From a virus (Duplodnaviria; Heunggongvirae; Uroviricota; Caudoviricetes), in the IMG/VR virus record IMGVR_UViG_3300021438_000001, positions 39,453 through 103,452 of that record: DNA of 64,000 bases. One strand, given 5' to 3'. Position numbers and translations under genes: made by a program. Of this stretch, positions 46,199 to 63,724 are shown one piece after another. How positions within the stretch are numbered: the stretch's first letter is position 1; the number at the start of each line of letters is the position of its first letter. The notes beneath the pieces are model-generated. The model searched no databases and had not been told where the DNA came from. It saw only the letters and a list, made by a program, of their open reading frames with translations.

Positions 46199-46204
46199 TG
46201 CTCA

Positions 46205-48332: not shown

Positions 48333-48357
48333 GTCATCAATGACATAGGAGAACATC

Positions 48358-48821: not shown

Positions 48822-48950
48822 AGACCCAAGACCAGTCTCCTAGGAGAGTAGTCTCCTATAAGACATAAGAGAAGTCTCCTAGGAGAGTAGTCTCCTGTCT
48901 CCTAGGAGAGTAGTCTCCTGTCTCCTATAAGACTTGATTGCCTGCCCGTG
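48822..48950 (+). repeat. iteron-like cluster: 3x palindrome TCTCCTAGGAGAGTAG interleaved with 3x TCTCCTATAAGAC
   Basis: Direct reading of 48,822-48,950; adjacent to an AT-rich stretch. Confidence 0.6.
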
Positions 48951-48984
48951 CGTTTACCATACAATCAAAACCCCTGCAAGCATT

Positions 48985-49035
48985 TGACGATTGAAAAAAT
49001 CAATCAGCACGATTGAAAAAATCAATCACAAAATG
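48985..49035 (+). promoter_or_regulatory. tandem palindromic operator-like sites GATTGAAAAAATCAATC (x2)
   Basis: Two identical 17-bp palindromes 20 bp apart in the AT-rich leader of the 49120 gene. Confidence 0.5.
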
Positions 49036-49119
49036 ATTGTTTTCTGGTTTGATTGTGTTATAGTTCAGTCATCGGTTGATTTTGACCGATACAACAAACC
49101 AACTTTTAAGAGGTACAAC

Positions 49120-49761
49120 ATGAGCAAAGCAAACGCAAACACTAGCAAAGCGAAGCAAGGTAAAAACGCAGTAGCAGCAAAGACCGACTATCAAGCGTTG
49201 ATCTTAGCAGCTATTCAAAAGCGAATCGACAATGCGGACAATGACAATCAACGCGACACGCTGCAAGCTGAATACAAGTTTTTCAATGACGCAAACGGTG
49301 CAGCTATTCTAAGCAAGTGCAGCGAAATTCAAGGTTTGAACCTTGCAGCATTGGTGCAACAAATTGCAGTTCTCAAGACAGAATCAAAGAGTGATTTTCT
49401 CGCAGTGTATGCACTGCAAAAGGTACGCAAAGCACTGTATGCACTCGCAAACAATGCGCGTTCATCGTTTGATGGTTATTCTAACTCTATCATGTTCAAT
49501 CTGGTGAAGCTGCAAACGGTGAACACCAAAGAGACGCGCATGAGCATTTGCAAAGCTATCGAATATAGCGAAACCGAACAAGTGCAAGCACTCAAACGCT
49601 TGCACAATTGCAGCGAATCGACCGCAAGCACTCAAGCAAGTAGCACGCGAATGATGCTCAAAGCGTTGAACCTTGCAAACGTGATCAAGTCAAAAAACAA
49701 TGACGCTATCACGCTTCAAGACAATGACGCAGCGCGCATGATTGTGACAATGTACGCTTAA
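49120..49761 (+). CDS. hypothetical protein encoded in a low-GC island (Ala/Asn/Lys-rich, alpha-helical)
   Basis: RBS AAGAGG; base composition markedly AT-richer than the rest of the window. Confidence 0.45.
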   Translation: MSKANANTSKAKQGKNAVAAKTDYQALILAAIQKRIDNADNDNQRDTLQAEYKFFNDANGAAILSKCSEIQGLNLAALVQQIAVLKTESKSDFLAVYALQKVRKALYALANNARSSFDGYSNSIMFNLVKLQTVNTKETRMSICKAIEYSETEQVQALKRLHNCSESTASTQASSTRMMLKALNLANVIKSKNNDAITLQDNDAARMIVTMYA

Positions 49762-50242
49762 CAGTGAAACCGATAGAGCGTGACACAATCACGCTCTATC
49801 AATGAAACCTATTGGAGATTGATAATGATTGATTTTATTGATTGTGCAGTAATTGCAATCGGTGCAGTGTACGTGATAGCGTGTCTCTATCGACCAGATG
49901 TGATGCTGTAATGTGAAAAAGAATACCGAAGTCCTAGAGATTTTCGGTTGCCTAGGAGGCGACCCCTTCCTCGTTCCGACCTCTCCCGAGCGCCCCTTAT
50001 ACAGCCAGGCAGACCCCTGAGATCACATCCTTATACAGCCGGCACACATAATGTAAAACGTACTTTGCAAAAGCGCCCCCAAGTGACAAATACGCTTTAC
50101 GTTAGTTCAGAATCCGTAAGACCGAGCGGAAAATGACCCGATGGGGACATTTCAGGCCCAAATCCCCACGTTCGCACCGAAAATGACCCGATGAGGACAT
50201 TTGCTTATCCTTATACAAGCAAAAAATTTCGAGGCGAGTGGG

Positions 50243-51710: not shown

Positions 51711-52105
51711 TTCTTCTCCCAGAATGATTCGGCTTTTCCATAAAACGGAAAGGCTGCTTGTTTTTGTCCGTTATCCAGCGCCAGGCGGCCGCACTTCGGT
51801 GTGCGGCAGCGATGGTTCGGCCGGCAGCCAGGGCAGGGGTCGTCAGGTGGTGCGCCAGCCGCGACTTGCAGTTGTTCATTCGTGACTGATGTGTTGTCTG
51901 CCATAGCTGGCGGGTTGATGCGAACAGGTGGATGCGGTTGATTCCACCACAGCACCTTGCCACCCTCGGTGATAGCACCGTGGCGCGTCACGCCGTCTTC
52001 GCCAGGCATCGAAAAGCACACTCCGTTGATCTGCCAACCGGCGTTCTGAAGGTCATCGAGCTTGCGCTTGGCGACCCCTTGAAATTCGAGACAGACTGTG
52101 GTCAT
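51707..52105 (-). CDS. hypothetical protein with C-terminal Cys cluster
   Basis: DPCPGCRPNHRCRTPKCG. Confidence 0.45.
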   Translation of the reverse strand: MTTVCLEFQGVAKRKLDDLQNAGWQINGVCFSMPGEDGVTRHGAITEGGKVLWWNQPHPPVRINPPAMADNTSVTNEQLQVAAGAPPDDPCPGCRPNHRCRTPKCGRLALDNGQKQAAFPFYGKAESFWEKK

Positions 52106-52362
52106 GTCAGCTCCTTAAAGAAGAACCGAAACTTCTTGCCGCACTTGGGACATTGCTCGACCGTCTCGTTGCTTGTGACTTGCTCCAACCGCTCGGTCTT
52201 CGTGTCGTCATAGGGGCACAGAGCCTCCATCTGAGGGCTGATGTCGAACATTGGCAAGAACGGCTGCTTCTCGCGCCTGGGGAACGTGTTCTGCCAGGCG
52301 GTAGTGAACTGATCGACAGGCACCACGAATGGACGTGGTGCGCTGCCCTTGCCGCCGCTCAT
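52102..52362 (-). CDS. zinc-ribbon small protein
   Basis: EALCPYDD...EQCPKCGKKF. Confidence 0.45.
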   Translation of the reverse strand: MSGGKGSAPRPFVVPVDQFTTAWQNTFPRREKQPFLPMFDISPQMEALCPYDDTKTERLEQVTSNETVEQCPKCGKKFRFFFKELT

Positions 52363-52658
52363 GTCTCGTCTTTCGGCAGTTGGGCTGCCAGGGCTTCGAG
52401 CTGCTCGGGGGTGAGCTTGCTCAGACGCTTCAGAATGGCGGTCTTGCCGGTGCGACCAGCTACCTTGGCCTCACGACGAGCCTTGAACGCTTCTTCCAGC
52501 TTGCCCATGTCGGCGCTGTCCATGAGCGTCTCAACGACCGCACCTTGAGAAATCTTGTAGGTCTTGGCGATCTTGGCGAGCTTCTCCTGCACGGTCTGCT
52601 CGACCACGATGGCGTAACGCTTGCCCTTCTCTTCGGCAACGTGGGTTTCCGTAGTCAT
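52359..52658 (-). CDS. small DNA-binding regulator, ribbon-helix-helix-like
   Basis: GGAGAAA RBS before the ATG at 52658; KRYAIVVEQTVQEKLAKIAKTYKISQGAVVETLMD; first gene downstream of the - strand promoter and operator. Confidence 0.4.
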   Translation of the reverse strand: MTTETHVAEEKGKRYAIVVEQTVQEKLAKIAKTYKISQGAVVETLMDSADMGKLEEAFKARREAKVAGRTGKTAILKRLSKLTPEQLEALAAQLPKDET

Positions 52659-52679
52659 GTGTTTCTCCGTTGAAAAATG

Positions 52680-52725
52680 ATTGTGTTTGCTAAGTATACA
52701 ACAGCAAACCTTATACAAGCAAAAC
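52680..52725 (-). promoter_or_regulatory. promoter-like TTGCTTGTATAAGG motif plus TTTGCTgttgtatacttAGCAAA palindromic operator (- strand)
   Basis: Reverse-complement reading of 52,680-52,725; lies directly 5' of the RHH-like gene. Confidence 0.45.
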
Positions 52726-52798
52726 GATGGGCAAAAAAATAGCCCCGTAGATGGGGCTAGAGGTTAGGAGGTAAAAACTGATTATACCGTCGATTCGC

Positions 52799-52990
52799 TT
52801 ATTTCTCTTCGTGGTGAACAAATCCGATGGGATTTCCCTGTTCTTCTTCGTCCTGATCGGCAAGCATAAGACCAAACGGCATTTCCTTGAGGAACATCAG
52901 GGCAAATAGCGCGAGGGGATTACTTGTCAGAATGATGGTCAGAACGATAGCGCCGATGATTGCGAGGTTGATGAGGAGTGCGTGGAGCAT
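52799..52990 (-). CDS. small membrane protein
   Basis: 63 aa, 2 TM. Confidence 0.35.
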   Translation of the reverse strand: MLHALLINLAIIGAIVLTIILTSNPLALFALMFLKEMPFGLMLADQDEEEQGNPIGFVHHEEK

Positions 52991-53056
52991 AGCCTGCCTT
53001 TCTAGTTATGTCATGACTGAGTGACATTCTAGGACAGTCAGGCAAGATTGCAAGAC

Positions 53057-54598
53057 TTAGGCGGTAGCGGCGCTGAAGATTCCGTAGTCGAAGTCAGCCT
53101 CATCCGGAAGCACGTTCTCCCCGAAACCCTCGGTATCGGTGACGATCTGGCGGCGCTGCTGCGCGTGAGACTTCAGGTAGGTGTTGAAGTCGTCTTGGAA
53201 GTCGAGAATGAACGCGCAGTTCGGCCCTTTCTTCTTGGCTCGAAGACCGCGACCGATGCGCTGGCGCAGCGCAACCTCGGCCTTACCACCGCCACCCAGA
53301 ATCACCATGCCGACTGCGGGAACGTCTACACCAACGTCCAGAATGGTCGAACCGATCAGAACGTCAATTGCACCAGTGGCGAGCTGTGAGAGTGCTTGCT
53401 TGCGCTCCGCTTGGTCATTGTCACCGTCGATGAACCGCGCACGTACACCTGCTTCGAGGAGCATGTCGCGCAGAAGGTGTCCATGCGCTTTCTGCTGGAT
53501 CAGAATCATGGTCGAGAGCTTGTGGCGAGCTGCTCGGGTCGCTTCGGCAATCATGATTGCGTTGCGCTCGACGTTCTGGACGATACCCAGACGGTAGGCA
53601 GCCTGCCAGGGCGTGCCGCGCAGCAGATGCTGAGGCTTTTGCTTGAGCTTGGCGTACTTGAAGATCGGACGAGCAAGAATGCCTCGGTCGATGAGCATCT
53701 TCTCGGTCACTTTGATGCCGATTGAGCCAAACGCAGCCATCAGACGCATGTTGGACTCTTCGTTGTCCTTCATGAATGGCGTGGCGGTCAGCGCCAGGCG
53801 GTAATGAGCATTCTTGCAGTGGCGAAGAATCTCGTAGTAGCTGTTGCCGGATGCCTCGTGCGCTTCCTCACCGATCACGAACTCGAATTTGCCCAGAAGG
53901 TCGATGGTTTGCTGACGGATCGCAGCCTGCTTGTTCTGCTGCTCGATGGTGTCGTCGGGGTTGGGTTCCTGAAGACGTGAAACGAGCGTCTGAACCATGC
54001 CAACCGACATTTTCTTGATGTACTGGCGTCCGTCCGCACCCGTGAAGCCGAATTGACCGTCGCCCAGTACCGAGCAGGGGATGCCGAGATCGTTCTCGAA
54101 CGTGTCCTTCATTTGGTACATCAGAATGCCGCGAGTGGTCAAAAACAGAGTAGGGCGGTTGATTCGCATGAACGCCAGGCGCGCAATGCGTGACTTGCCA
54201 CCGCCTGTGGCGACCTGAGCAATCATGGAGCCGTGCTTGCACAGCCGGTTCACCACTTCCATCTGATAGTCGTAGCGCGGGTCTTCGGGGAATGCGTCAA
54301 CCTTGGGGTTCTCGGGGCCTGTTGGCAGCGGCAAAGGCTTGCGAACGCGATTGACCTTGTAGCCCTCTCGCGTGAGCTGCGCCGCCACGTAGTTGACGAA
54401 GCCAGCAGGGAAGGTGCCGGTGCGGAAGTCAAAGAAGGACGACCGACCGTCCCAGTTGCCTGTTTTGAACGCCCCAGTATGTTCCGCACCCTCGACTCGG
54501 TAAGAAACATACTTCTGGACGGCCAATTTTGCTTGACGTGTCGGCTCATGCAGCTTGGCTGTCGTGGCGTTGTAGGCAATCGTTACGATTTCAGTCAT
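53057..54598 (-). CDS. SF2 DEAH-box DNA helicase
   Basis: Walker A VATGGGKSRIA, DEAH box IGEEAHEA, motif III LTATPF, arginine finger QRIGRGLR; AAAGGAA RBS; track start at 54625 over-extended. Confidence 0.8.
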   Translation of the reverse strand: MTEIVTIAYNATTAKLHEPTRQAKLAVQKYVSYRVEGAEHTGAFKTGNWDGRSSFFDFRTGTFPAGFVNYVAAQLTREGYKVNRVRKPLPLPTGPENPKVDAFPEDPRYDYQMEVVNRLCKHGSMIAQVATGGGKSRIARLAFMRINRPTLFLTTRGILMYQMKDTFENDLGIPCSVLGDGQFGFTGADGRQYIKKMSVGMVQTLVSRLQEPNPDDTIEQQNKQAAIRQQTIDLLGKFEFVIGEEAHEASGNSYYEILRHCKNAHYRLALTATPFMKDNEESNMRLMAAFGSIGIKVTEKMLIDRGILARPIFKYAKLKQKPQHLLRGTPWQAAYRLGIVQNVERNAIMIAEATRAARHKLSTMILIQQKAHGHLLRDMLLEAGVRARFIDGDNDQAERKQALSQLATGAIDVLIGSTILDVGVDVPAVGMVILGGGGKAEVALRQRIGRGLRAKKKGPNCAFILDFQDDFNTYLKSHAQQRRQIVTDTEGFGENVLPDEADFDYGIFSAATA

Positions 54599-54604
54599 CA
54601 AATT

Positions 54605-54640
54605 CCTTTTGTGTAAGGCTTGCAAAGTCTTTGTATAAGG
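54605..54640 (+). promoter_or_regulatory. promoter-like CTTGCAaagtcTTTGTATAAGG motif in a divergent intergenic region
   Basis: Same composite motif as at 47492; followed by a GTCAgcaaTGAC palindrome. Confidence 0.4.
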
Positions 54641-54716
54641 ATTATAGTTCAGTCAGCAATGACTAACAAATCCATTAGGCCCGTCCGTGAGTAATTCCAA
54701 AAACATCAAGGTGGAG

Positions 54717-55346
54717 ATGATTGACCCAGGGCGGCTTTCGCCAAACCCCTGGAACACCAACATCGTTTCACCCGAAAACATGGCGAAGCTCGATGCCAGC
54801 ATCGAACGACTTGGCCTGTTCAAACCAATCGTCGTCCGAGAACTCAAAGACGGCTCTCTCGAAATCCTCGGTGGCGAACACCGATGGGAGTCGGCAAAGC
54901 GCCTGGGCCACCAGAGTGTGCCTATCGTCAACCTCGGTAGCGTCACAGACAAGCGAGCCAAAGAGATTGGCCTTGTCGATAACGGTCGCTACGGGGCCGA
55001 CGACACGCTTCAGCTTGCAGGCTTGCTCGATGACCTTGGTCTGAGTCCAGAGGAGCTGTCGAGCTTCATGCCTTATTCCGAGAGCGACTTCGCGTCGATC
55101 TTCTCAAGCGTGAATATAGAGCTGGATGACCTTGACCTCGATGACGGGGATAGCGAACCCCAACTGCCGGCAACCAAACCCACCCAGACGCATCAAATTA
55201 TGCGTTTCAAAGTCCCAGTCGAGGACGCAGGAGCCATCTCCGAGCTGATCGAGAAAACCATGAAGGAGCAACGCTTTGTCGATGAAGATTCACTTTCTAA
55301 TGCCGGCAATGCCCTTGTTTTCCTCATCGGAGCCACAGGAAAGTGA
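54717..55346 (+). CDS. ParB-like nuclease domain protein (paralog 1)
   Basis: ParB N-terminal domain pattern: LEILGGEHRWESAKRLG ... VPIV; GGTGGAG RBS. Confidence 0.55.
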   Translation: MIDPGRLSPNPWNTNIVSPENMAKLDASIERLGLFKPIVVRELKDGSLEILGGEHRWESAKRLGHQSVPIVNLGSVTDKRAKEIGLVDNGRYGADDTLQLAGLLDDLGLSPEELSSFMPYSESDFASIFSSVNIELDDLDLDDGDSEPQLPATKPTQTHQIMRFKVPVEDAGAISELIEKTMKEQRFVDEDSLSNAGNALVFLIGATGK

Positions 55347-55353
55347 GTCGGAT

Positions 55354-55542
55354 GTGACCAAGTGTGCCTACCGCTACCCAGAGTGCGAAACGTGCGTCAA
55401 CCACGTCTACGACCCCGATATGTGTGATGAGTGCGAAGACGCCGACTGCTATGAGGAAGGCGACACGGAAGAGGACTTCTTCGACCGCCCAGAGGACATG
55501 ACTATTCAAGAATTTAAGGACTTCCTCAACGGAAGCTCCTGA
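55354..55542 (+). CDS. Cys-rich acidic small protein
   Basis: GTG start; YRYPECETCVNHVYDPDMCDECEDADC. Confidence 0.25.
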   Translation: MTKCAYRYPECETCVNHVYDPDMCDECEDADCYEEGDTEEDFFDRPEDMTIQEFKDFLNGSS

Positions 55543-55556
55543 AGCGAGGAGATGTA

Positions 55557-56213
55557 ATGAGCAAGACAACCCTGCCAGGCCAAATCACGGTCTGGGACAT
55601 TGAGAAAATCAAACCCTATGACCTGAACGTCAAGAACCACGACGCCAGCCAAGTCGAACGCATCGCCAAGTCGATTCAAGAGTTTGGTTGGGACCAGCCT
55701 ATCGTCGTTGACAAGGACGGCGTGATCATCAAGGGTCATGGTCGCCGCCTGGCTTCTATCAAGCTCGGTCTGAAGCAAGTGCCGGTCTGGGTGCGTGACG
55801 ATCTCACCCCAGAGCAGGTTCGCGCCTCGCGCCTGGCAGACAATCGCGTTGCGATCTCTGACATCGACAGCGCCATGCTCCAGAAAGAGCTGGAATCGCT
55901 CAATTTCGACCTCGAAGGCATCTTCGACAAAAAGGAGCTGAACTTCCTCGAAGCGGACCTCGGCTCTGTTAATACCGACGCCTTCGTTGACGACATCGAG
56001 GTGGAGGTGGCTCGCCAGGCTGAGGACAGCACACGCACGGTCGAGAAGGTCGATTCCCGTGATGTGAAGATCGACAAGGCACTGGGCTTCAAGAGCATCC
56101 AGGGCAAAGACGAACGTCACGTCGCTGCGTTCATGGCGCAGGTTGAGAGTGAGACAGGCAAGGAGGGCGCTGAGGCGTTCGTTACCTTTGTCAAAACGCT
56201 GTTGGAGGGCTAA
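55557..56213 (+). CDS. ParB-like nuclease domain protein (paralog 2)
   Basis: VIIKGHGRRLASIKLGLKQVPVWV; GAGGAG RBS. Confidence 0.55.
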   Translation: MSKTTLPGQITVWDIEKIKPYDLNVKNHDASQVERIAKSIQEFGWDQPIVVDKDGVIIKGHGRRLASIKLGLKQVPVWVRDDLTPEQVRASRLADNRVAISDIDSAMLQKELESLNFDLEGIFDKKELNFLEADLGSVNTDAFVDDIEVEVARQAEDSTRTVEKVDSRDVKIDKALGFKSIQGKDERHVAAFMAQVESETGKEGAEAFVTFVKTLLEG

Positions 56214-56216
56214 GTC

Positions 56217-56585
56217 ATGAGTGAGGTATATCTCGGCTTGCCCCGCAAAGTGAAGATCGGTCAGTACACCTTCCGCATCTTCATCACCACCCCCGACAAG
56301 CACGAAATTCTTGAAGGCTGTGACGGCATCACGGACTTCGAGACGTTCCGCATCTATCTCCACGAAACGCTTGCGCGACAGCGCGCCATCAACGTGGTGC
56401 AGCACGAGATCACCCACGCGATCAACTGGGTCTATGGGATTGACGACGGCGCTCAGGAAGAGGCCATCACCACCCAACACACCAACGGACTCATCGAAAT
56501 GTGGATTAGCAATCCGAAAGTATTCAACTGGTTCGCCAAGACATTGCGCTCGATGAAGCGCGAGGCGAAGAAAGACGACGAATGA
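56217..56585 (+). CDS. HExxH-motif mini-protein (putative zinc metallopeptidase-like)
   Basis: VVQHEITHAINW; 122 aa. Confidence 0.4.
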   Translation: MSEVYLGLPRKVKIGQYTFRIFITTPDKHEILEGCDGITDFETFRIYLHETLARQRAINVVQHEITHAINWVYGIDDGAQEEAITTQHTNGLIEMWISNPKVFNWFAKTLRSMKREAKKDDE

Positions 56586-57244
56586 GTTCCTACACCCTCG
56601 ACAAACGCTTCACTTCCGCAGTGGAGCGCACCGACCGAGTTCTGGAGATCGCTGAGGCGTTCGGTCTGGGCTTGGACGATAAAGAGTTCGTGATCTTCGA
56701 CCAGCAAGAAATCGTGGTGGAGCAAGGCGATGTGGTCTACATCACCGGCCAATCCGGTTCAGGCAAATCGCTGGCTCTGCGCGAGCTGAAGAAGCAGATG
56801 TCCGAAAAACATATACAAGTTTCGGACATTGATGAGGTTCCGCTCGACAACACGAAGCCACTGATCGACCAGATCGGCAAGAACACGACGGAGGCGCTGA
56901 CGCTGCTTTCCATCGCCGGCTTGAACGACGCCTACCTGTTCGTTCGCAAGCCAAACGAGTTGTCTGACGGTCAACGCTACCGCTTCCGTCTTGCCAAGAT
57001 CATCGAGTCTGGCGCGAAGGTATGGGTCGCTGACGAGTTCCTCGCAGTGCTGGATCGCGTCACTGCCAAGGTGATCGCGTTCAACCTGCAAAAGATCGCC
57101 CGCAAGATGGGCGCAACCCTCATGGTTGCCACAACTCACACCGACATGGTGGAAGACCTGGCGCCGAACCTCTACATCGAAAAACGCTATCGGGAAAAGA
57201 TCAAGATCGTTCGCTCTCCTGATGGATACAAGGAGAAAGAATGA
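56582..57244 (+). CDS. small ABC-type ATPase
   Basis: Walker A GQSGSGKS, ABC signature LSDGQRYR, Walker B VWVADEF, H-loop ATTH. Confidence 0.6.
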   Translation: MSSYTLDKRFTSAVERTDRVLEIAEAFGLGLDDKEFVIFDQQEIVVEQGDVVYITGQSGSGKSLALRELKKQMSEKHIQVSDIDEVPLDNTKPLIDQIGKNTTEALTLLSIAGLNDAYLFVRKPNELSDGQRYRFRLAKIIESGAKVWVADEFLAVLDRVTAKVIAFNLQKIARKMGATLMVATTHTDMVEDLAPNLYIEKRYREKIKIVRSPDGYKEKE

Positions 57245-57552
57245 CCGACCAAGAAACCTTCGAACAAGCAATTCTCAAGTCTTGGGCTGAGGAGAGCGGC
57301 GCCAAGTCGTTCGTGCTGTTCAGCTCGCCGACATGCGGCCCTTGCAAGGGCGTCAAGCTGACCCTGGAGAAGCTCGAAGCTGAACTCGGCGTGCAAGTGT
57401 CCTATGTGAACGTGTTCCACGCTCAGGCGGCTGCGCAATCCAATGGCATCCGTGCTGTTCCGACCCTCATCAAGTTCGAAAAGAGTGTGGCAACTGCTCG
57501 GATCGTCGGTGCGGAGTCTGAAACAAAGATGCGCGAGTTCCTGAATGCCTGA
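57241..57552 (+). CDS. thioredoxin
   Basis: CGPC active site (SPTCGPCKG). Confidence 0.75.
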   Translation: MTDQETFEQAILKSWAEESGAKSFVLFSSPTCGPCKGVKLTLEKLEAELGVQVSYVNVFHAQAAAQSNGIRAVPTLIKFEKSVATARIVGAESETKMREFLNA

Positions 57553-57826
57553 CATGAGCGTTGCCGACTTCCTGCTGGTCTTCCTCGGTAACTTCACCGT
57601 GGTGTTCCTGCTTGGCATCCAGTCGCGCAATGTGCAGCACGGCCGTTACCTTGCGGCCGTCCTGACATCGGCCGGCATCAACATCTCCAACTTCATCTTC
57701 GTCAAGTACGCCAGCAACGGCGCACTGGCGGTTCTTGGCGTCTCGACGCTTGGTGGCTGCATGGGCATTGCCACCGCAATCTGGTTCTACAAACACATCA
57801 TCGAAAGGAAGAGCAATGGCAACTAA
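57545..57826 (+). CDS. membrane protein (3 TM; holin-like size)
   Basis: Hydrophobic 93-aa product. Confidence 0.4.
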   Translation: MPDMSVADFLLVFLGNFTVVFLLGIQSRNVQHGRYLAAVLTSAGINISNFIFVKYASNGALAVLGVSTLGGCMGIATAIWFYKHIIERKSNGN

Positions 57827-57959
57827 GAAGCCTCTTGGCCCCAACCCGAAGGAAGTGACTGAGAAGGTCAGCAAGACCAACGGCCACACCGACATCTCCA
57901 AGAAAGCCGATCTGCGTGACTCTGGCAAGACGCCAGCAACGAAGAAGGCCAAGAAGTAA
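57816..57959 (+). CDS. small basic protein (47 aa)
   Basis: GAAAGGAAG RBS; Lys-rich. Confidence 0.3.
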   Translation: MATKKPLGPNPKEVTEKVSKTNGHTDISKKADLRDSGKTPATKKAKK

Positions 57960-58318
57960 TGAGCGGCTCTGGCTGGATCGGTGTCGATCTCGACGGCACC
58001 CTGGCGCGCTACGACGGCTGGAAGAGCGAAACGCACATCGGAGAGCCGGTGCGTGAAATGGTTTCGCACGTCCAACAATGGCTGTCTGAGGGGCGCACGG
58101 TCAAGGTCTTCACGGCTCGCGTGTACGAAGGCGCTCGCAATCTTGATGGATCGCTGCGCGACATCTCTCACGTTCGCAAGGCCATCGAAGATTGGTGCGA
58201 GCAGCACATCGGACAGCGCATGGAGGTCACGAACGTCAAAGACTACGGAATGATTGCCCTGTACGACGACCGCGCCTTTCACGTCCGTCCCAACACCGGA
58301 GAGATCGTGCATGGTTGA
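57959..58318 (+). CDS. HAD-superfamily-like small phosphatase
   Basis: Motif I IGVDLDGTLA; ATGA-coupled. Confidence 0.45.
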   Translation: MSGSGWIGVDLDGTLARYDGWKSETHIGEPVREMVSHVQQWLSEGRTVKVFTARVYEGARNLDGSLRDISHVRKAIEDWCEQHIGQRMEVTNVKDYGMIALYDDRAFHVRPNTGEIVHG

Positions 58319-59234
58319 AACCAACAACGCCGACATTCTGATCGAGCGCCGGCAGCCGCCGGCTAACCATGCTCTGTCGCTGCTGGACGAGTGCTACGTC
58401 GAGCGTGGCGACATTGACGATTGGAACCTGCTGCACGAGCTGCATTACAAAGCAGAGAGCCTGGGCATCGGCCCTCGCATCTACCGCTGTGTGCTGCGCG
58501 GACAGACCATCGGCGTTGGCGTCATGACAGTGCCCAAAATTCTGCTTTCCGGCCGCAATGAGGTTTTCGAACACCTCAAGCCCAACACGGGAGGCATGGA
58601 CAGCCGACTGATTAACCGTCATCGAGCAATGTGGATCAACGATCACGCCTGCACGAACAGTCGGCTGGTCTTGGACACCATGTATCGCGGTGCCGGCATT
58701 GCCTACCGCATGCAGAACCTCATGATGCGAATGACAGGCTGCCAAGTCGTTGAGTTCCAGTCATCCATGTCCAAGTTCAACCCCTTCGCGGGCAAGGCAG
58801 GTATTCGGTTCACCAAACCGCGCCGCTCTGCCAAGTTCGAGAAGGGTGTCGAGTTCTTCCGTCGCTGGTTCGAATCGAACCCTTCGGATTACGTCGGCAT
58901 CATGAAAGAGATTGAGGACATGCCCAAGGCGGTGCGCGAGAAGTGCGTCGCCGAAATGCGAAAGTTCTACTACGCATCGTCCGCGCTGGAAAAGACAGGC
59001 AACGCCCGTATGCGCGGCGTTGAACGGTCGGAGACGATGGAGGTTGGACACCTTCTGAAATCGCTCCAGCAGTTGACGTTGGCTAGTCCGCTGTACGGGG
59101 TTTATCTGAACCCCGATGCAAGCCCTGAAAAAGCCAAGTCGATGCTCCCACCTCGACTGCCCCTGTTGGCATTCGATTATCAGCCTACGGACGCGCCGCT
59201 CGACCTGTCGAAGCTGCCGCAACAGTACCGCTGA
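58311..59234 (+). CDS. hypothetical protein (possible GNAT-like fold)
   Basis: 307 aa; ATG overlaps the previous stop; RGQTIGVGV segment. Confidence 0.45.
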   Translation: MVETNNADILIERRQPPANHALSLLDECYVERGDIDDWNLLHELHYKAESLGIGPRIYRCVLRGQTIGVGVMTVPKILLSGRNEVFEHLKPNTGGMDSRLINRHRAMWINDHACTNSRLVLDTMYRGAGIAYRMQNLMMRMTGCQVVEFQSSMSKFNPFAGKAGIRFTKPRRSAKFEKGVEFFRRWFESNPSDYVGIMKEIEDMPKAVREKCVAEMRKFYYASSALEKTGNARMRGVERSETMEVGHLLKSLQQLTLASPLYGVYLNPDASPEKAKSMLPPRLPLLAFDYQPTDAPLDLSKLPQQYR

Positions 59235-59252
59235 CACGCAAAGGTTGAAGCC

Positions 59253-59585
59253 ATGCACCTTACATACAAACAAATTGAACTTCTGAAGGTGGTGAACGCC
59301 GGCAACCCCGACGGCACCCCAACCGATCTGGACGAACTGATCGAGCGCGTTTCGTACAAGCCGACCAAGCAGTCCATCCAATTCTCCATCCGAGCTTTGA
59401 TTGCTCACGGCTTGATTGAGAAGGGAACCACTGAGAAACGACGGGGCCGAATGCGGGCGATCATCAAGATCACACCTGCCGGCGCCACCATGATGGGCGA
59501 AACAACTTCATCGGGGCCGAGCTTCGTCACCAGCGTGGAAGAAGATGAGACTTTTCAAGAGCTTGAAGAGTTTCTGGAGCCGTGA
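59253..59585 (+). CDS. winged-helix DNA-binding protein
   Basis: QSIQFSIRALIAHGLIEKG...RGRMRAIIKITPAG. Confidence 0.4.
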   Translation: MHLTYKQIELLKVVNAGNPDGTPTDLDELIERVSYKPTKQSIQFSIRALIAHGLIEKGTTEKRRGRMRAIIKITPAGATMMGETTSSGPSFVTSVEEDETFQELEEFLEP

Positions 59586-59649
59586 CGTTGCTTTCGGGAC
59601 CGTCACGGGGAAAACGACTCCCACGTTAATATAGATAGATAAATAAAGA

Positions 59650-60027
59650 ATGAATCAATGTAATGATGTAAATGTCGCGGGACAAAAATTCCCCCAGAAC
59701 GGGGAAGACCTCGACACGCGCATCGCTCGGCTCCTGGGGCTGCGGGCGGAAGTGCAGGACGAGATCATGAAGGTCTGGCCCTGGGACGTGGCGCCTGACG
59801 AGTCCAATTGGTCTGTCGGTACTCGATATACCAAGGAACCAGCAAAGACGGCTGAACTGCTCGCAGAACGCGGCATTCAGCACTTCATTCGCAACAAGGG
59901 TCCGGTGGTCTTCTGCGTCTTCGGCGCAGGAGGGTGGCTGGACGAGACTCCGCTATTCGAGAACGAAGATGACGCGCTCGCCGCAGCTCTTTGGATGGTT
60001 CTCGTAAATAAGTCACGAATGACTTGA
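59650..60027 (+). CDS. hypothetical protein
   Basis: AT-rich leader; 125 aa. Confidence 0.4.
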   Translation: MNQCNDVNVAGQKFPQNGEDLDTRIARLLGLRAEVQDEIMKVWPWDVAPDESNWSVGTRYTKEPAKTAELLAERGIQHFIRNKGPVVFCVFGAGGWLDETPLFENEDDALAAALWMVLVNKSRMT

Positions 60028-60124
60028 ATATGCGAAGTCTTTCCACTACACTTGGCGCCAATCGAGCTTTCTCCTCGGGGCGTCTTCTCCAACGCCCTTT
60101 TTTTTCGACCGCGAAAGGCTCGAA

Positions 60125-60787
60125 ATGACAGAAGAAGTAATCAAAAAGAAAAAGCCGAAGCCTCGTAAGAACTCGCCCCGCATGTCTGCTCGCAAGTGGG
60201 CGGAAGCCGAAGCTCTGTGGGAGGCCGGCGAGATCACAGTTAATGAATTGGCGACCAAGTTCGGTTTGAGTCGCCAGGCGTTTCAACGCCACTTCAAAGC
60301 CCACGGTGTCGTGTTCGGCTCTAAGAAGGTCGAGCTGAAGAAAGCCGTTTCTGAAGGCGTGACGAAAGCAGTTCAAGAGGACGCACAAATCCTCGCAGCT
60401 CGCATTAAAGAGACGAAGGAAGAGCATTACAAGATGGCTTCCGGTCTGGCGAAGCTGACTTGGGCGGAGATTCTCAAAGCGAAGCAAGACAGCGTGCCTG
60501 TGGGCACCGCGATCATGAACCTGAAGGCGCTGGACACAGCGGCATCGGTTCTGAAGAAGACACGCGAGGAGCGTTACGCAGTCCTGGGTCTGGACAAAGA
60601 CGCAGTGGACGAAAACGACGTGCCGGAACTGGTGATCTCGGAACTGACCGCAGATCAGATCGAGGCATTGCGCAACCGCAGCTTCCAAGAGATTGACGAG
60701 ATCGACGTTGAAGTCGATGAAGACACCAGCAACAGCCTGGCCGACCCAGATGAGGACGGCGAAGACGATGTTGTCGAGGAGAAGTAA
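60125..60787 (+). CDS. terminase small subunit (HTH DNA-binding, acidic C-tail)
   Basis: Basic N-terminus, HTH ITVNELATKFGLSRQAFQRH; directly upstream of and ATGG-coupled to the large terminase. Confidence 0.5.
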   Translation: MTEEVIKKKKPKPRKNSPRMSARKWAEAEALWEAGEITVNELATKFGLSRQAFQRHFKAHGVVFGSKKVELKKAVSEGVTKAVQEDAQILAARIKETKEEHYKMASGLAKLTWAEILKAKQDSVPVGTAIMNLKALDTAASVLKKTREERYAVLGLDKDAVDENDVPELVISELTADQIEALRNRSFQEIDEIDVEVDEDTSNSLADPDEDGEDDVVEEK

Positions 60788-62034
60788 TGGCTCGACAGCG
60801 CGTCAATCTCTCACTTCACACCAAGCAGATGGAGGTCTTTCGCTCCACCTGCCGCTATCGCGTCGTTGTCGCGGGGCGTCGTTGGGGTAAGACCGCGCTG
60901 TCTCGCGTTCTGATCATCAAGAAGGCACAGAAAGCCAAGCAAAAAATCTGGTACGTGGCACCCACGTACAAGATGGCAAAGCAAATTATGTGGGTTGACC
61001 TGATGGATGCGATTCCGCGCAAGTGGATTCGCAAGGTCAACGAAACCAGCCTGACGATCACGCTGATCAACGGCACTCGCATCGAGCTGAAGGGCGCCGA
61101 CAAGCCGGACTCGCTTCGTGGCGTGGGTATCCACTTCCTTGTGCTGGACGAGTTTCAGGACATGGCGGAAGAGGTCTGGACGCTGGTTCTGCGACCCACT
61201 CTTGCTGACACAGGCGGCCATGCGATCTTCATCGGCACCCCAAAGGCGTACAACTACCTCTACGAGCTTTACAAGAAGGGCCAGAACAAGCGCCTGACGG
61301 CGACAAAGCAGTGGGAGAGCTGGCAGTTCCCCACGATCACTTCGCCGTTCATCCCGCTCGATGAGATTGAGGCGGCTCGGTCCGACATGGACGAGAAGAG
61401 CTTCCGACAAGAATTCGAAGCCAGCTTCGAAACCATGTCTGGGCGCGTCTACTACCCGTTCGACCGCAAGACCCACATCGGCAAGTACGAGTTCAATCCA
61501 AAGCTGCCCATCTGGGTGGGTATGGACTTCAACATCGACCCGATGTCCACGGTGATCTACCAACCGCAGCCCAGTGGCGAGCTGTGGGCGGTGGATGAGA
61601 TTGTGCTATTCGGCTCAAACACGGAAGAGGTCTGCGAGGAGCTGGAGAAGCGGTACTGGCGCCACCAGGCGCAGATCACCGTCTACCCTGACCCTGCCGG
61701 CGGACAGCGCCAGCACGCTCGTGGTGAAACCGACATGGACATTCTTCGAGAGAAGGGGTTCAAACGCATCAAGTACCGTCGCAAGCACCCGATGGTGGCT
61801 GATCGCGTCAACGCAGTGAATCGAATGCTGCGCGATGCCAACGGCAAAGTGCGCTTGAAGATTGACGAAAAGTGCAAGCACTTCATCAACGCGATGGAAC
61901 AAACCATCTACAAGAAGGGAACCCGAGAGGTCGATAAATCGGCCGGCGTGGAACACTCGGCTGACGCGGGTGGCTACTGCATCGAGCTGGAATTCCCAGT
62001 CCGCAAGATCGAGGTTGGTGGCATCTCGATTTAA
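60787..62034 (+). CDS. terminase large subunit
   Basis: Walker A VVVAGRRWGKT; Walker B/adjacent LVLDEFQD; C-terminal RNase-H-like nuclease region (VYPDPAGGQ). Confidence 0.85.
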   Translation: MARQRVNLSLHTKQMEVFRSTCRYRVVVAGRRWGKTALSRVLIIKKAQKAKQKIWYVAPTYKMAKQIMWVDLMDAIPRKWIRKVNETSLTITLINGTRIELKGADKPDSLRGVGIHFLVLDEFQDMAEEVWTLVLRPTLADTGGHAIFIGTPKAYNYLYELYKKGQNKRLTATKQWESWQFPTITSPFIPLDEIEAARSDMDEKSFRQEFEASFETMSGRVYYPFDRKTHIGKYEFNPKLPIWVGMDFNIDPMSTVIYQPQPSGELWAVDEIVLFGSNTEEVCEELEKRYWRHQAQITVYPDPAGGQRQHARGETDMDILREKGFKRIKYRRKHPMVADRVNAVNRMLRDANGKVRLKIDEKCKHFINAMEQTIYKKGTREVDKSAGVEHSADAGGYCIELEFPVRKIEVGGISI

Positions 62035-62077
62035 TCCTTGACATCAGTCACCAGTGACGTATAAGATAGGCGCCCAA

Positions 62078-63724
62078 ATGAGCAACTTCCAACTTAAACC
62101 CAACGAGAGCATGTCGGTTGACCCGAAGAGTCCGCTTGCAGGCGCAGGCACGGCTCCGACCACTGACGAGCAAAAGAAGCTGAAGGCTCTGATCGAACGC
62201 CGCCACCCCGAATATGTGGAGAACGTCGATCACTGGGAGTTTCTGGAAGAAACCTACGAAGGTGGGCGCGAGTGGTTCAAGGAGAACATCTTCCGCTACA
62301 TCAAGGAAGGTGACACTGAGTTTGCCGACCGCCTGGCTCGCGCATATCGCTTCAACCACAGCCGCGAGGTTGTGGACCTTCTGAACAAGTACCTGTTCAA
62401 ACAAAACATCCAGCGCAACGACGCCGATGCACCCGAGTCGGTGAAACGCTTTTGGAAACGCGCAACGCTCAACGGGTTGGGCATCAAAGACCTGGCACGC
62501 CAAATCTCGAAGAAGGCTTCGATCTCTGGTCGCGTCGGCATTGTGATCGACAACACAACCCAAGGTCAGTTGGTCGTGTCGAAGGCGGATGAGAAGAAGT
62601 CCGGCGTTCGCACTTACGCCTACATCGTCGGCCCAGAACAGCTTCTGGACTACGCCTTCGATGACACTGGCGACCTGACATGGGCGCTGATTCAAGAGTG
62701 TGTCCGTGACGACGCTGACCCACTCACATCGTCTGGTGAAGAGGAAGAACGCTTCCGTCTGTGGACGAAGAACGAATGGAAGCTGTACCAAGAGGTGAAA
62801 GAGGGCCGCAAAAAGGTCATCAAGCTCATCGACAGCGGCGAGCATAACCTCGGCATGGTTCCGGTCGTCCTGGCGGACAACATCATCTCCGACGAGGAGT
62901 ACTGCGCTCCATCGCTGATCGGCGACATCGCCTATCTCGACCGCGCAGTGGCAAACTACCTGTCGAACTTGGATGCAATCATCCAAGACCAAACCTTCTC
63001 GCAACTGGCAATGCCGGCTCAGAACGTGCTGCCAGGCGAGGACAACTACACCAAACTCACAGAGATGGGCACGAAGCGCATCTTCCTCTATGACGGGGAA
63101 GGTGGCGCAGCGCCGTTCTATCTTTCGCCTGACCCAAAGCAGGCACGAATGATCATCGAGACGGTCAACAAGATCATCTCGGAGATTTACCACACGGTCG
63201 GCCTGGCTGGTGAACGCACCAAGCAGGACAACGCGATGGGTATCGACAACTCCAGTGGCGTTGCTAAAGCCTTCGACTTCGAGCGAGTGAATGCTCTGTT
63301 GGCGGCGAAAGCAGACAGTCTTGAAGTGGTCGAGAACAAGATCGTGACCATTGTGGCAGCGTGGAACGGTGAAGAGTCCAAGGTTCAGGACAAGGAACTT
63401 GTCTCTTACCCCGACGACTTCGACACCCGTGGCTTGTACGACGAGTTCGACATCGCCGCACGCCTGATGCTCATCGACGCTCCTGACGAGGTGCGCCAAG
63501 AGCAGATGAAGTCGGTGCTGGACAAGCTGTTCCCGCAAATTGGAGAGGCTGTTCGAGGAAAGCTCGATAAGGCTCTCAAAGATTGGCCTGTCGATCCATT
63601 GTCTTTGGTTCCCCCAGTGCAAACCGTGGGTGAATCGAACAAGGACGGCAACGTCAAAAGCGGTCTGACGGTCAAGAAAGACCCGAAAGACAACAAGCAA
63701 GGGCAGAACAACTCTGCTCCTTAA
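62078..63724 (+). CDS. portal protein (by position and size)
   Basis: 548-aa ORF immediately 3' of the large terminase; start ambiguous (GTG 62054 vs ATG 62078). Confidence 0.5.
   Translation: MSNFQLKPNESMSVDPKSPLAGAGTAPTTDEQKKLKALIERRHPEYVENVDHWEFLEETYEGGREWFKENIFRYIKEGDTEFADRLARAYRFNHSREVVDLLNKYLFKQNIQRNDADAPESVKRFWKRATLNGLGIKDLARQISKKASISGRVGIVIDNTTQGQLVVSKADEKKSGVRTYAYIVGPEQLLDYAFDDTGDLTWALIQECVRDDADPLTSSGEEEERFRLWTKNEWKLYQEVKEGRKKVIKLIDSGEHNLGMVPVVLADNIISDEEYCAPSLIGDIAYLDRAVANYLSNLDAIIQDQTFSQLAMPAQNVLPGEDNYTKLTEMGTKRIFLYDGEGGAAPFYLSPDPKQARMIIETVNKIISEIYHTVGLAGERTKQDNAMGIDNSSGVAKAFDFERVNALLAAKADSLEVVENKIVTIVAAWNGEESKVQDKELVSYPDDFDTRGLYDEFDIAARLMLIDAPDEVRQEQMKSVLDKLFPQIGEAVRGKLDKALKDWPVDPLSLVPPVQTVGESNKDGNVKSGLTVKKDPKDNKQGQNNSAP

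Follow-up and report, generated by a model that had tools for sequence, protein, structure and literature searches.

What do the genes between a divergent helicase gene and the terminase genes of this tailed virus do, and which of them belong together? The window, a 64,000-nucleotide stretch of a Caudoviricetes genome (IMG/VR record IMGVR_UViG_3300021438_000001, positions 39,453 to 103,452), had been given a preliminary description that read eight genes ahead of the terminase as one system. An ORF check recovered every ORF listed there, on the + strand and at the same coordinates, and the motifs are real too. The region contains the following features:

53057..54625, - strand: SF2 DNA helicase, 522 aa (phrog_16, 1.6e-99)
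54620..54648, + strand: sigma-70-like promoter match in the divergent helicase/ParB1 intergenic region (consensus scan)
54669-54641: mirror sigma-70-like match, for the helicase (consensus scan)
54717..55346, + strand: ParB1, core (Pfam ParB_N, 2.3e-14; phrog_723, 3e-64)
55300..55542, within ORF 55276-55542, + strand: Cys-rich acidic peptide, accessory (ORF and sequence)
55557..56213, + strand: ParB2, core (phrog_930, 4e-86)
56217..56585, + strand: HExxH zincin-like protein, 122 aa, accessory (HEITH motif)
56582..57244, + strand: ABC-type ATPase, core (Pfam ABC_tran, 4.7e-10)
57241..57552, + strand: thioredoxin, variable insert (CGPC; Pfam Thioredoxin, 7.5e-13)
57545..57826, + strand: 93-aa three-TM protein, variable insert (phrog_7045 'holin', 1.1e-12)
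57959..58318, + strand: 119-aa HAD-like protein, variable insert (HAD motif I, DLDGT)
58311..59234, + strand: 307-aa GNAT-fold protein with a helical C-terminal domain, core (pI 9.2)
59253..59585, + strand: winged-helix-like protein (wHTH), 110 aa, near-core (phrog_900, 1.9e-27)
59650..60027, + strand: 125-aa acidic ORF, accessory (found in 18/56 loci)
60077..60098, + strand: terminator-like hairpin and T-run between the cluster and terS (consensus scan, pattern match only)
60125-60787, + strand: TerS, small terminase (phrog_867, 4e-58)
60787-62034, + strand: TerL, large terminase (phrog_2, 8e-54)

The ORFs of the 93-aa three-TM protein (57545-57826) and the 125-aa protein (59650-60027) had been overlooked. 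The two promoter matches score 9 of 12 and 10 of 12 in the consensus scan and are pattern matches only; sigma-70-like matches in total show no excess over shuffled controls in that scan. The sequence upstream of the ParB1 ATG is AAGGTGGAG.

We compared gene order in 57 related viral contigs, with some downstream genes scored in 56. The order is fixed across these contigs: ParB1, ParB2, ABC ATPase, 307-aa protein, usually the wHTH protein, TerS, TerL, and portal. ParB1, ParB2, and the ATPase are colinear in 57/57 loci, and TerS and TerL are both present in 56/56. Every related locus examined shows the core in colinear order, so the arrangement is far from a chance one. The ATPase averages 74% identity over the 57/57 loci, and TerL alone ranks higher; TerL is 62-64% identical to its counterparts in nickie, RHEph10, and SSU5. 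The helicase gene lies directly upstream of ParB1, divergent and on the opposite strand, in all 57 related loci and in these three phages. It is regarded here as a syntenic neighbor of the module.

Counts for the intervening genes do not bear out the reading of eight genes as one system. The Cys-rich peptide (C-x6-C-x2-C-x9-C-x2-C-x4-C, with two CxxC pairs; pI 4.1; start uncertain, ATG 55300 or GTG 55354) has no family match in Pfam or PHROG and occurs in 21/57 loci; its slot holds small ORFs in nickie and RHEph10 and none in SSU5. The HExxH protein, found in 26/57 loci at 25-90% identity, has weak Pfam matches to SprT-like (0.0026), M78, and DUF6782 and matches the N-terminal part of phrog_1233 (2.6e-17). 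Thioredoxin is present in 43/57 loci at only 25-82% identity, and tblastn did not find it in nickie, RHEph10, or SSU5. The 93-aa holin-family protein occurs in 21/57 loci. The HAD-like assignment is based only on the DLDGT motif and weak matches to phrog_1238 and phrog_415 (2.5e-6 and 3.4e-5), with no Pfam match; the gene is in 0/57 related loci and is missing even from the 91%-identical contig L012. These five proteins are cargo inserted in a variable slot. The 125-aa acidic ORF has no family match. The wHTH protein, which matches Pfam HTH_27 only at E 0.003, is found in 51/56 loci, has an 88-aa counterpart in SSU5, and is possibly part of the functional unit.

The preliminary description had presented the ATPase as lacking a transporter partner and the 307-aa protein as putatively GNAT-like; it had missed that the two belong to one enzyme. 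The ATPase carries all expected motifs (GQSGSGKS, LSDGQ, VWVADE, ATTH), and Walker A, LSDGQ, Walker B, and the H-loop are invariant or nearly so in its orthologues (n = 64). It aligns over its full length with the N-terminal half of fused proteins P0165 and P0174 at 45-46% identity (1e-56 and 1e-63), the 307-aa protein is 30% identical to the C-terminal half of fused proteins, and both parts occur together in 70+ cluster representatives ≥380 aa long. These matches show the ATPase and the 307-aa protein to be the N- and C-terminal halves, respectively, of one ABC-ATPase–GNAT enzyme. In the window a distance of 1.07 kb, holding thioredoxin and two more inserted genes, separates the genes for the two halves. 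One member of the ATPase family contains an intein.

The 307-aa protein has a GNAT fold. Its acyl-CoA loop is invariant as R-x-x-G-x-A within its lineage and as Q-x-x-G-x-G in a distant fused subfamily. A fold search with its C-terminal domain gave no informative match. The GNAT half is basic (pI 9.2), in contrast to the acidic ParB1 (pI 4.5) and ParB2 (pI 4.9).

Both ParBs consist of a ParB/Srx domain, a linker, and a small C-terminal domain. In ParB1 the N-terminal domain is NTP-binding, the linker is acidic, and the C-terminal domain spans ~50 aa; GGxHR and DNxR are invariant among its orthologues (n = 59). ParB2, whose orthologues share invariant GHGR and R..DN motifs, scores 25.9 bits against Pfam ParB_N, narrowly below the 26.3 cutoff. 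It matches positions 28-185 of phrog_498 'DNA methyltransferase' (1e-36), and it also matches PADLOC MTase_II (6e-23). ParB2 belongs to the kind of ParB that in other settings forms fusions with DNA methyltransferases (PMC12704722), which suggests that one effector has replaced another at this genomic position. The nearest solved relatives of ParB1 are the N-domains of Noc and Spo0J, a likeness that could fit a partition role in a plasmid prophage or a KorB/IbrB-like regulator of the late operon, with the ATPase as NTPase partner. The lineage does include SSU5-type phage-plasmids (PMC7969092), a ParA-like gene lies 3 kb away in RHEph10, and the wHTH protein is co-conserved. We nevertheless consider this role improbable, as a Pfam search detected neither an HTH nor a canonical ParB C-terminal dimerisation domain in the ParBs, no parS-like repeats were found, and the partnering ATPase is of the ABC type and joined to a GNAT, not a ParA. 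Small lambdoid phages, a Streptococcus siphophage, and integrated archaeal proviruses carry this module too, which likewise speaks against such a role.

The linkage of the ParB-like proteins to the ATPase, suggested in the preliminary description, recurs in distant phage lineages. In the distant fused subfamily, a ParB_N ORF abuts the fused gene upstream in 41/69 loci by Pfam, and lineage HMMs place a ParB-like gene directly upstream in 59–61/69. Stop and start codons often overlap at these junctions, and the ParB2 HMM matches ParBs adjoining fused ABC-GNAT genes (Pmp13, 8e-38; MismyG, 2e-36). Cultured phages with this adjacency infect hosts from four bacterial phyla, and the archaeal proviruses contain ParB_N genes, with ABC-GNAT among head genes. 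Pairing of an ATPase with an acetyltransferase-like protein recurs in hundreds of unrelated phages and also in archaeal viruses. Together these loci show a genetic coupling of the ABC-GNAT enzyme with both a ParB-fold protein and the packaging-operon head across very distant viruses. It is highly improbable that there is no functional unit and that unrelated accessory genes simply gathered in a permissive slot upstream of the terminase. The comings and goings of the thioredoxin, holin-like, HAD-like, HExxH, and Cys-rich genes would fit such a slot, as would an ABC-to-GNAT gap of 27 to 3146 nt across related loci, but for the core the invariant order, the fusions, and the adjacency counts already contradict it. 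The functional unit is best explained as a four-gene core of ParB1, ParB2, the ABC ATPase, and the 307-aa GNAT protein.

The position ahead of the terminase, also pointed out earlier, is conserved across four TerL families: in the distant subfamily a terminase from one of four different Pfam families lies ≤4 kb downstream, which argues against a single recently spread cassette as the source of the adjacencies. In several loci the gap to TerL shrinks to between -13 and about 375 nt, so that a small terminase would fit there barely or not at all, and in Gordonia phage Sisko the ParB and ABC-like genes are followed by one further gene and then the terminase, no TerS being annotated. Such loci, and the constant placement upstream of TerS/TerL, are compatible with a packaging-machine accessory: like the HNH proteins of cos phages, a ParB-fold protein would mark or open the site where packaging starts, as a nickase or clamp, and ABC-GNAT would help remodel DNA or terminase there. 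PMC5512222 cites nicking activity in the ParB domains of ParB-methylases, in support of this idea. We regard it as unlikely: some family members sit in replication modules with no ParB or terminase nearby, it is not obvious what a conserved acyl-CoA loop would do in packaging, the terminator-like site divides the window cluster from terS, and this lineage has a separate TerS.

Other ABC-GNAT members adjoin PolIII alpha, primase, or helicase genes, and some are fused to a family-B DNA polymerase (PolB–ABC–GNAT, in 24+ contigs) or to Gins51_C. The fusions would place the enzyme beside replisome proteins, and, with the head-gene surroundings in archaeal proviruses, they would fit a protein acetyltransferase whose target is a replisome, packaging, virion, or host DNA-bound protein. 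The ABC head would then regulate the enzyme or bind its substrate, with ParB recruiting the enzyme to DNA-bound targets. A precedent for protein acetylation is Eco1, a GNAT-fold enzyme that acetylates the ABC-type SMC3 head during replication. We find this explanation credible but rather doubtful, since the ParB-fold partners whose function is known work with DNA-directed enzymes or in DNA segregation (PMC13229309, PMC12704722) and the carrier viruses share no candidate substrate, their terminases, for example, belonging to four families.

We tentatively favor a ParB-assisted, ATP-gated acyltransferase that would act on viral DNA before packaging. The ABC-GNAT enzyme would be acyl-CoA-dependent, and ATP would drive its ABC heads to dimerise, so that the basic GNAT halves are placed on, or licensed to act at, double-stranded viral DNA. 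The two acidic ParBs, in which an NTP-binding N-domain is followed by a small, presumably dimerising C-terminal domain and no HTH is detectable, may be NTP-gated clamps or activators that keep the enzyme on DNA, like the ParBs associated with 5mYOX enzymes. What results would be an acyl mark added after replication to some of the bases, just before or during packaging, and sequence-limited rather than global. The terminases downstream and the replication-gene neighbors and fusions of family members fit such a DNA-directed role. DNA modification is a plausible role by comparison with phage ParB-like proteins that lack a DNA-binding domain and activate a DNA base-modifying enzyme on dsDNA (PMC13229309), with the GNAT enzyme Mom, which acylates dsDNA late in infection (PMC13219725), and with a ParB–acetyltransferase fusion that binds GTP (PMC12704722). 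The module lies just ahead of the DNA-packaging genes; the region upstream of the terminase, however, commonly receives accessory genes of all kinds, which counts against the proposal. So do the top structural matches of the 307-aa protein, which are ordinary small-molecule and protein N-acetyltransferases. Palindromic hexamers are strongly avoided in the window (O/E 0.30, 36/64 absent; 0.19 to 1.37 in relatives with the same cassette). Avoidance despite the cassette indicates that the cassette has not removed selection by Type II restriction enzymes and argues against a blanket protective DNA modification. The searchable literature contains no report of modified bases in SSU5-like, nickie-like, or RHEph10-like phages.

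The layout had not been recognized as a described system, and we likewise found no description or study of a ParB plus ABC-ATPase–GNAT module as a system in the literature. The fused ABC-acetyltransferase family, which we take to be COG2401/MK0520-type, shares both domains, their order, and clear homology to both halves, although it is encoded by one gene rather than two. Homologues bear the label 'ABC-type ATPase fused to a predicted acetyltransferase domain' at JGI and in some phage records; this family is named but uncharacterized, with no paper found in the literature.

The RNA cytidine N4-acetyltransferases TmcA and NAT10 also couple a GNAT domain to an NTPase domain, and they acetylate the exocyclic amine of a nucleobase with acetyl-CoA and ATP hydrolysis. 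They differ in having a RecD-like helicase domain instead of an ABC head, a tRNA or rRNA substrate, and no ParB. We detected no sequence relationship between them and the window enzyme. TmcA is mentioned in a study of phage Mu Mom (PMC13219725; PDB 8bv8), which is likewise a phage GNAT fold, making DNA a possible substrate, and is late-expressed. Mom acts alone, with neither ATPase nor ParB, and uses Gly-tRNA rather than acyl-CoA, whereas the window protein retains the acyl-CoA pyrophosphate loop; Mom ranks only 41st among its structural matches.

A ParB-fold NTPase likewise accompanies DNA-modifying machinery in Dpd (DpdA/DpdB) and Dnd (DndB). The earlier Dnd/Dpd-like comparison found no further support, as PADLOC detected no TGT/DpdA, DndA, DndC, DndD, DndE, or other Dnd or Dpd component, only generic ABC and MTase-ParB matches. 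ParB2 matches the N-terminal ParB of the ParB–DNA methyltransferase fusions that phages and prophages encode (phrog_498; PADLOC MTase_II; Kaljevic et al. 2025, PMC12704722); the window lacks the methyltransferase domain and has ABC-GNAT as the neighboring effector. The 5mYOX-associated ParB activators of phage thymine dioxygenases (O'Toole et al., PNAS 2026, PMC13229309) are likewise small ParB-fold proteins of phages, in which an NTP-binding domain at the N-terminus is joined to a C-terminal domain and no DNA-binding domain is obvious, and they too are encoded beside an enzyme. As in the window, terminase genes often co-occur with them (19% of contigs; PMC13229309). Those systems pair one ParB with an Fe/2OG dioxygenase, whereas the window pairs two ParB paralogues with an ABC-ATPase–GNAT enzyme of predicted activity.

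Family scans confirmed the ORFs and domain calls of the preliminary description, which had proposed an eight-gene pre-terminase cluster at 54717-59585, and all of the motifs named there were found. The reported ORFs are real, but its gene list had overlooked a membrane protein (57545-57826) and a 125-aa ORF. From 54.6 to 64 kb, the ORFs are closely spaced along the plus strand.

Genes of the pre-terminase region, with the basis of each call
53057-54625, minus strand, divergent from the cluster: helicase (family scans)
54717-55346, plus strand: ParB1, strong Shine-Dalgarno at start 54717 (ORF and family scans)
ending at 55542, plus strand: Cys-rich acidic peptide (ORF)
55557-56213, plus strand: ParB2 (ORF and family scans)
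56217-56585, plus strand: 122-aa HExxH protein (ORF, motif)
56582-57244, plus strand: ABC-type ATPase (ORF, motifs)
57241-57552, plus strand: thioredoxin (ORF, family scans)
57545-57826, plus strand: 93-aa three-TM protein, holin-family (ORF)
57959-58318, plus strand: 119-aa protein with HAD motif I (ORF, motif)
58311-59234, plus strand: 307-aa protein, no Pfam match (ORF)
59253-59585, plus strand: 110-aa winged-helix-like (wHTH) protein (ORF)
59650-60027, plus strand: 125-aa ORF, orf125 (ORF)
60125-60787, plus strand: small terminase, TerS (ORF, family scans)
60787-62034, plus strand: large terminase, TerL (ORF, family scans)
62054-63724, plus strand: portal (ORF)

Pattern matching, which is weak evidence, placed sigma-70-like matches in both directions in the helicase/ParB1 intergenic region and a hairpin followed by a T-run between orf125 and terS. 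If real, these promoter- and terminator-like signals would make the cluster a unit separate from the structural operon. In contrast, lambdoid Pasteurella phage Pmp13 carries the module in its late region, 3' of the lysis genes.

At the DNA level, none of 50,697 phage records is near-identical to the cluster, and metagenomic fragments are the sole source of this phage (locus L028 is 100% identical and locus L012 91%). TerL shares 62-64% identity with Pseudomonas phage nickie, Rhizobium phage RHEph10, and SSU5-type phage-plasmids. The nearest protein relatives lie in metagenomes and Oxalobacteraceae genomes, and the host is likely betaproteobacterial. The remainder of the window codes for a PolIII-alpha-like polymerase, SbcCD, RNR, a RecA/UvsX-like protein, an RNA ligase, and nine tRNAs (20568-21576; Met, Asn, Glu, Pro, Tyr, Thr, Trp, and two Leu). 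The stretch from 42646 to 48991 is without any ORF of at least 180 aa; G+C is 0.47-0.49 at 46001-50000 against ~0.55 elsewhere, and AT skew is high (0.33) at 46001-48000.

The window shares a gene order with nickie, RHEph10, and SSU5 that runs from the minus-strand helicase to the portal: helicase, ParB, (small ORF), ParB, (HExxH), ABC ATPase, variable small genes, a ~295-aa protein, a ~88-aa protein, TerS, TerL, and portal. We fetched 80 IMG/VR loci encoding the 307-aa protein and mapped all window proteins onto them, scoring presence in loci with enough flanking DNA (57 or 56 of 80). The preliminary description had suggested checking the conservation of the cassette relative to the terminase. 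Among these related loci, the helicase, ParB1, ParB2, and the ATPase occur in 57/57, in an order that never changes, and TerS, TerL, and portal in 56/56. Presence then falls from the wHTH protein (51/56) through thioredoxin (43/57), HExxH (26/57), the Cys peptide and the membrane protein (each 21/57), and orf125 (18/56) to the HAD-like gene (0/57). On the basis of these counts, the eight-gene combination shrinks to a core of four or five genes (ParB1, ParB2, the ATPase, the 307-aa protein, and possibly the wHTH protein), the variable inserts being cargo. Mean identity to the window falls from 79% (TerL) and 74% (ATPase) through 69% (both the 307-aa protein and portal) to 61-62% (ParBs) and 52% (TerS). 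The ATPase and 307-aa genes lie anywhere from 27 to 3146 nt apart, which marks this interval as an insertion hot-spot. The HAD-motif gene at 57959-58318 looks like a very recent acquisition. It is missing even from the 91%-identical L012, where the neighboring genes lie 133 nt apart.

Together, the ATPase and the 307-aa protein make up one enzyme, a split variant of a fused family that joins an ABC ATPase to a GNAT acyltransferase (ABC-GNAT). JGI labels some homologues of the 307-aa protein "ABC-type ATPase with predicted acetyltransferase domain", and the acyl-CoA loop R-x-x-G-x-A (YRGAGIA) of this protein is invariant. A HMMER scan of 1.84 billion representatives returned 210 relatives. Distant members measure 450-880 aa and have an N-terminal half that is ABC_tran by Pfam and a GNAT part from about residue 215. 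The window ATPase aligns to the N-terminal half of >70 fused relatives at 35-52% identity, including full-length alignments at 45-46% identity to the relatives P0165 and P0174 (E 1e-56 and 1e-63), and the 307-aa protein matches the C-terminal half of P0165 (E 4e-20). The ATPase carries the family signatures AFGLG.D, ELSDGQ.YR, and DEF..LDR.TAK (alignment A5), and the C-terminal GNAT-fold domain with an acyl-CoA loop that characterizes the fused family was found in the window. These comparisons establish a conserved acyl-CoA-type GNAT coupled to a conserved ABC ATPase. Whereas the fused family holds both domains in one polypeptide, the window encodes them in two genes with three ORFs between, and the whole SSU5/nickie/RHEph10 lineage carries the split form.

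An ABC transporter has a permease or transmembrane partner, whereas the window cluster has no permease and only the 93-aa holin-family insert, found in 21/57 loci. The public label "ABC transporter" is misleading because the conserved partner of the ATPase is a GNAT domain and not a permease. Public records of nickie, SSU5, RHEph10, Cyrano, and others are inconsistently annotated: the GNAT half is named "ABC transporter ATP-binding subunit", and some RefSeq/GenBank records name ParB2 "DNA methyltransferase" or "DNA modification methylase"; both mislabels appear to have been carried over from fused relatives. A PDB sequence search returned nothing for the GNAT profile, transporter NBDs only for the ATPase, and no solved structure of either half's family. 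In the literature, we found no functional study of COG2401, of an ABC-type ATPase with an acetyltransferase domain, or of the SSU5/Nickievirus cassette.

ParB1 and ParB2 are acidic (pI 4.5 and 4.9), and in each an acidic linker joins a ParB/Srx domain of ~100 aa to a C-terminal domain of ~50 aa. ParB_N matches ParB1 in Pfam at 2.3e-14 and ParB2 at 25.9 bits, with a cut-off of 26.3. ParB1 retains GGxHR and DNxR and resembles Noc/Spo0J N-domains; ParB2 retains GHGR and R..DN and resembles the N-terminal domain of phage ParB-methyltransferases (phrog_498 1e-36, PADLOC MTase_II 6e-23). At the sequence level, the C-terminal domains look like beta-alpha-alpha (ribbon-helix-helix-like) segments. Unlike a canonical ParABS ParB, with its central HTH and canonical C-terminal dimerization domain, the window ParBs have neither: no HTH or ParB C-terminal Pfam domain was found at E up to 0.1, and TIGR00180 scored 42 and 33 bits, far under its cut-off of 58.45. 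A canonical ParABS system also has an adjacent ParA-type ATPase, whereas here the ParB neighbors are the helicase and the ABC ATPase, and the cluster has no ParA. A search of 52000-61000 for parS-like or pac-like repeats gave short, chance-level matches only, with no outstanding repeat family. For all their ParB/Srx folds, it is very improbable that these are partition or regulator proteins.

IMG/VR scans gave 332 relatives for the split GNAT half and 553 for the split ATPase half, largely on the same contigs, and at least 593 relatives of the fused distant subfamily; a scan with alignment A5 returned close relatives only. Cultured phages with the module infect Proteobacteria, Firmicutes, Actinobacteria, and Spirochaetes; SSU5-type phage-plasmids of enterobacterial pathogens carry it too, as do archaeal proviruses. 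Fused forms are found in Nitrososphaerota/Thermoproteota MAGs and viral contigs, and in archaeal genomes tailed-virus proviruses carry the fused gene amid protease, capsid, adaptor, and portal genes and not far from a ParB_N gene. Loci with the fused gene amid head genes are L005-L007, L092-L094, and L252 (Nitrososphaerota MAGs, e.g., Candidatus Geocrenenecus huangii). Since no TerL is visible in L005 and L092-L094, we considered the fused protein as a TerL substitute in these proviruses, an idea dropped because the extended L252 has a Terminase_6N TerL (433 aa), a portal, and a ParB_N+HTH protein beyond the tail genes. One 665-aa fused form has an ordinary archaeal chromosomal context.

The ABC-GNAT enzyme is found beside DNA replication or packaging genes. 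In P0228 (L009/L010 10001-13783; 1260 aa), PolB is fused to ABC-GNAT in 24 or more contigs of one virus family; the PolB part has exonuclease and polymerase domains, and genes for Prim-Pol, a RecA-like protein, and a 5'-3' exonuclease occur in the same contig family. The relative P0167 has a Gins51_C domain ahead of ABC-GNAT, and one fused relative adjoins PolIII alpha. Another, P0190 (847 aa), harbors an intein (Hint + LAGLIDADG) within its ABC ATPase domain. Inteins usually reside in essential replication or packaging enzymes.

Searching cultured-phage proteins with the ATPase recovered the SSU5/nickie/RHEph10 group and the distant fused subfamily. The gene order is ParB-like, 366-aa fused protein, TerS, TerL in Pmp13; ParB-like, 366-aa "GNAT" protein, TerL in Leptospira LE4; ParB-like (gp1), ABC-like (gp2), terminase (gp4) in Gordonia Sisko; and ParB/Srx, ABC, GNAT, ASCH, TerL in Streptococcus MismyG. 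HMMs place the cultured-phage members in the same family and assign the ParBs of Pmp13 and MismyG to the ParB2 type. The MismyG ASCH-domain gene (L171 6045-6413) lies 3' of the ParB/ABC/GNAT genes; the GNAT part there is annotated at only 87 aa, perhaps because it is truncated or mis-called. The fused gene of two Flavobacteriia phages is close to primase and/or helicase genes, without ParB, and that of a T4-like Vibrio phage has neither ParB nor replication genes nearby.

We also fetched 80 loci of the fused subfamily from IMG/VR, 69 of which were scored upstream and 52 downstream. In 69/69, a same-strand ORF directly upstream abuts the fused gene and frequently runs into its start codon. This ORF is ParB_N by Pfam in 41/69 and ParB-like by window-lineage HMMs in 59/69 (61/69 after one iteration); the others are DnaB/AAA_25 or 5'-3' exonuclease genes. 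The ABC-GNAT enzyme is thus genetically coupled to ParB-fold proteins. This link is general for the enzyme, and the window holds an expanded module with a duplicated ParB, a split enzyme, and inserted cargo. Within 4 kb downstream, the first large ORF (52 loci) matches Terminase_6N (31), Terminase_3 (12), GpA_ATPase (5), or TerL_ATPase (5), a single protein being able to match more than one family. With four terminase families involved, the arrangement is not simply co-inherited with packaging genes. Several gaps from ABC-GNAT to TerL in this subfamily (L172-L251, e.g., L200, L219, L244) are just -13 to ~375 nt, so that a conventional small terminase gene would hardly fit, if at all. The very short gaps at some loci favor a packaging accessory, a role that we consider distinctly unlikely.

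A possible explanation for the module would involve an ATP-gated acyltransferase acting on DNA or something DNA-bound, with ParB serving as an NTP-gated clamp or activator. Action of a T-dioxygenase on dsDNA requires phage ParB-like proteins that have an N-domain and a C-domain and lack a DNA-binding domain (PMC13229309). The typical fusion partner of phage ParB-fold domains is a DNA methyltransferase, and a ParB–acetyltransferase fusion that binds GTP is known (PMC12704722). Mom, itself a GNAT enzyme, acylates dsDNA at a late stage of infection (PMC13219725). Given these results, DNA is the most economical target, and the basic pI of the GNAT half (9.2) fits a nucleic-acid substrate. We therefore propose, tentatively, a ParB-assisted acyltransferase that acts on viral DNA before packaging. 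That ABC-GNAT is a protein acetyltransferase seems unlikely. A broader form of the DNA proposal, in which ParB and ABC-GNAT would constitute an undescribed, very widespread, ATP- and ParB-dependent system that uses acyl-CoA to acylate phage and archaeal-virus DNA after replication and before packaging (leaving, for example, N4-acetyl-dC or N6-acyl-dA), is conceivable but doubtful.

Palindromic hexamers are exceptionally scarce in the window: 36/64 are absent, and 301 were observed versus ~1000 expected (O/E 0.30), a deficit that is even across all four quarters. These 36 are among 68 hexamers absent on both strands. Examples are CGATCG (0, expected 39), AGCGCT (0, expected 32), and GTCGAC (0, expected 31), while GCCGGC (47), TTCGAA (35), TCATGA (31), and TGATCA (28) are not avoided; the tetramers CTAG and GGCC are also depleted. 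Among relatives with the same cassette, palindromic hexamer O/E ranges from 0.19 to 1.37. The window deficit and this range indicate that the cassette leaves its carrier under selection by Type II enzymes. Any DNA mark is probably sparse, sequence-specific, or for another purpose. These results temper the DNA-modification proposal, as do the structural matches, which give Mom no prominence, and the lack of Dnd or Dpd parts by PADLOC.

Overall, the finding of the preliminary description is real, and the core is more interesting than the gene list given there: the ParB + ABC-GNAT module is widespread, mislabelled, and unstudied. ParB-fold proteins were only recently shown to activate a phage DNA-modifying enzyme, and the module would extend this principle to a different chemistry and an ATPase-coupled enzyme. 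DNA acylation, if true, would represent a new DNA-modification class and a second independent ParB-gated base modification. The corrected label and the core/cargo split make the question directly testable in tractable phages, SSU5, nickie, Pmp13, and LE4 among them. A DNA mark as product would be relevant to restriction evasion and sequencing artefacts and possibly as an enzymatic tool.

Among described systems, the phage thymine dioxygenase system 5mYOX has small ParBs with an N-domain, a C-terminal domain, and no DNA-binding domain (PMC13229309), and the window ParBs are alike by Pfam/PHROG and sequence. However, the 5mYOX partner is a TET/JBP-type Fe/2OG dioxygenase, and no ORF of the window cluster contains such a domain. 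Mom has a unique insertion and a catalytic Ser, whereas the window GNAT has no specific similarity to Mom, which was also not singled out among its structural matches. Dnd and Dpd systems are defined by DndACDE or DpdA (TGT), none of which was found in the ten cluster ORFs by PADLOC and Pfam. Apart from generic ABC matches (mad3, mad8) and an MTase-ParB match, PADLOC assigned nothing to defence or anti-defence. A TmcA-like role on the phage's own nine tRNAs was set aside because viruses that lack tRNA genes have the module too, beside DNA-handling genes. The ParB + ABC-GNAT module is a member of no described system and is best placed, with its function as a proposal, as a new variant among ParB-partnered DNA-directed enzymes.
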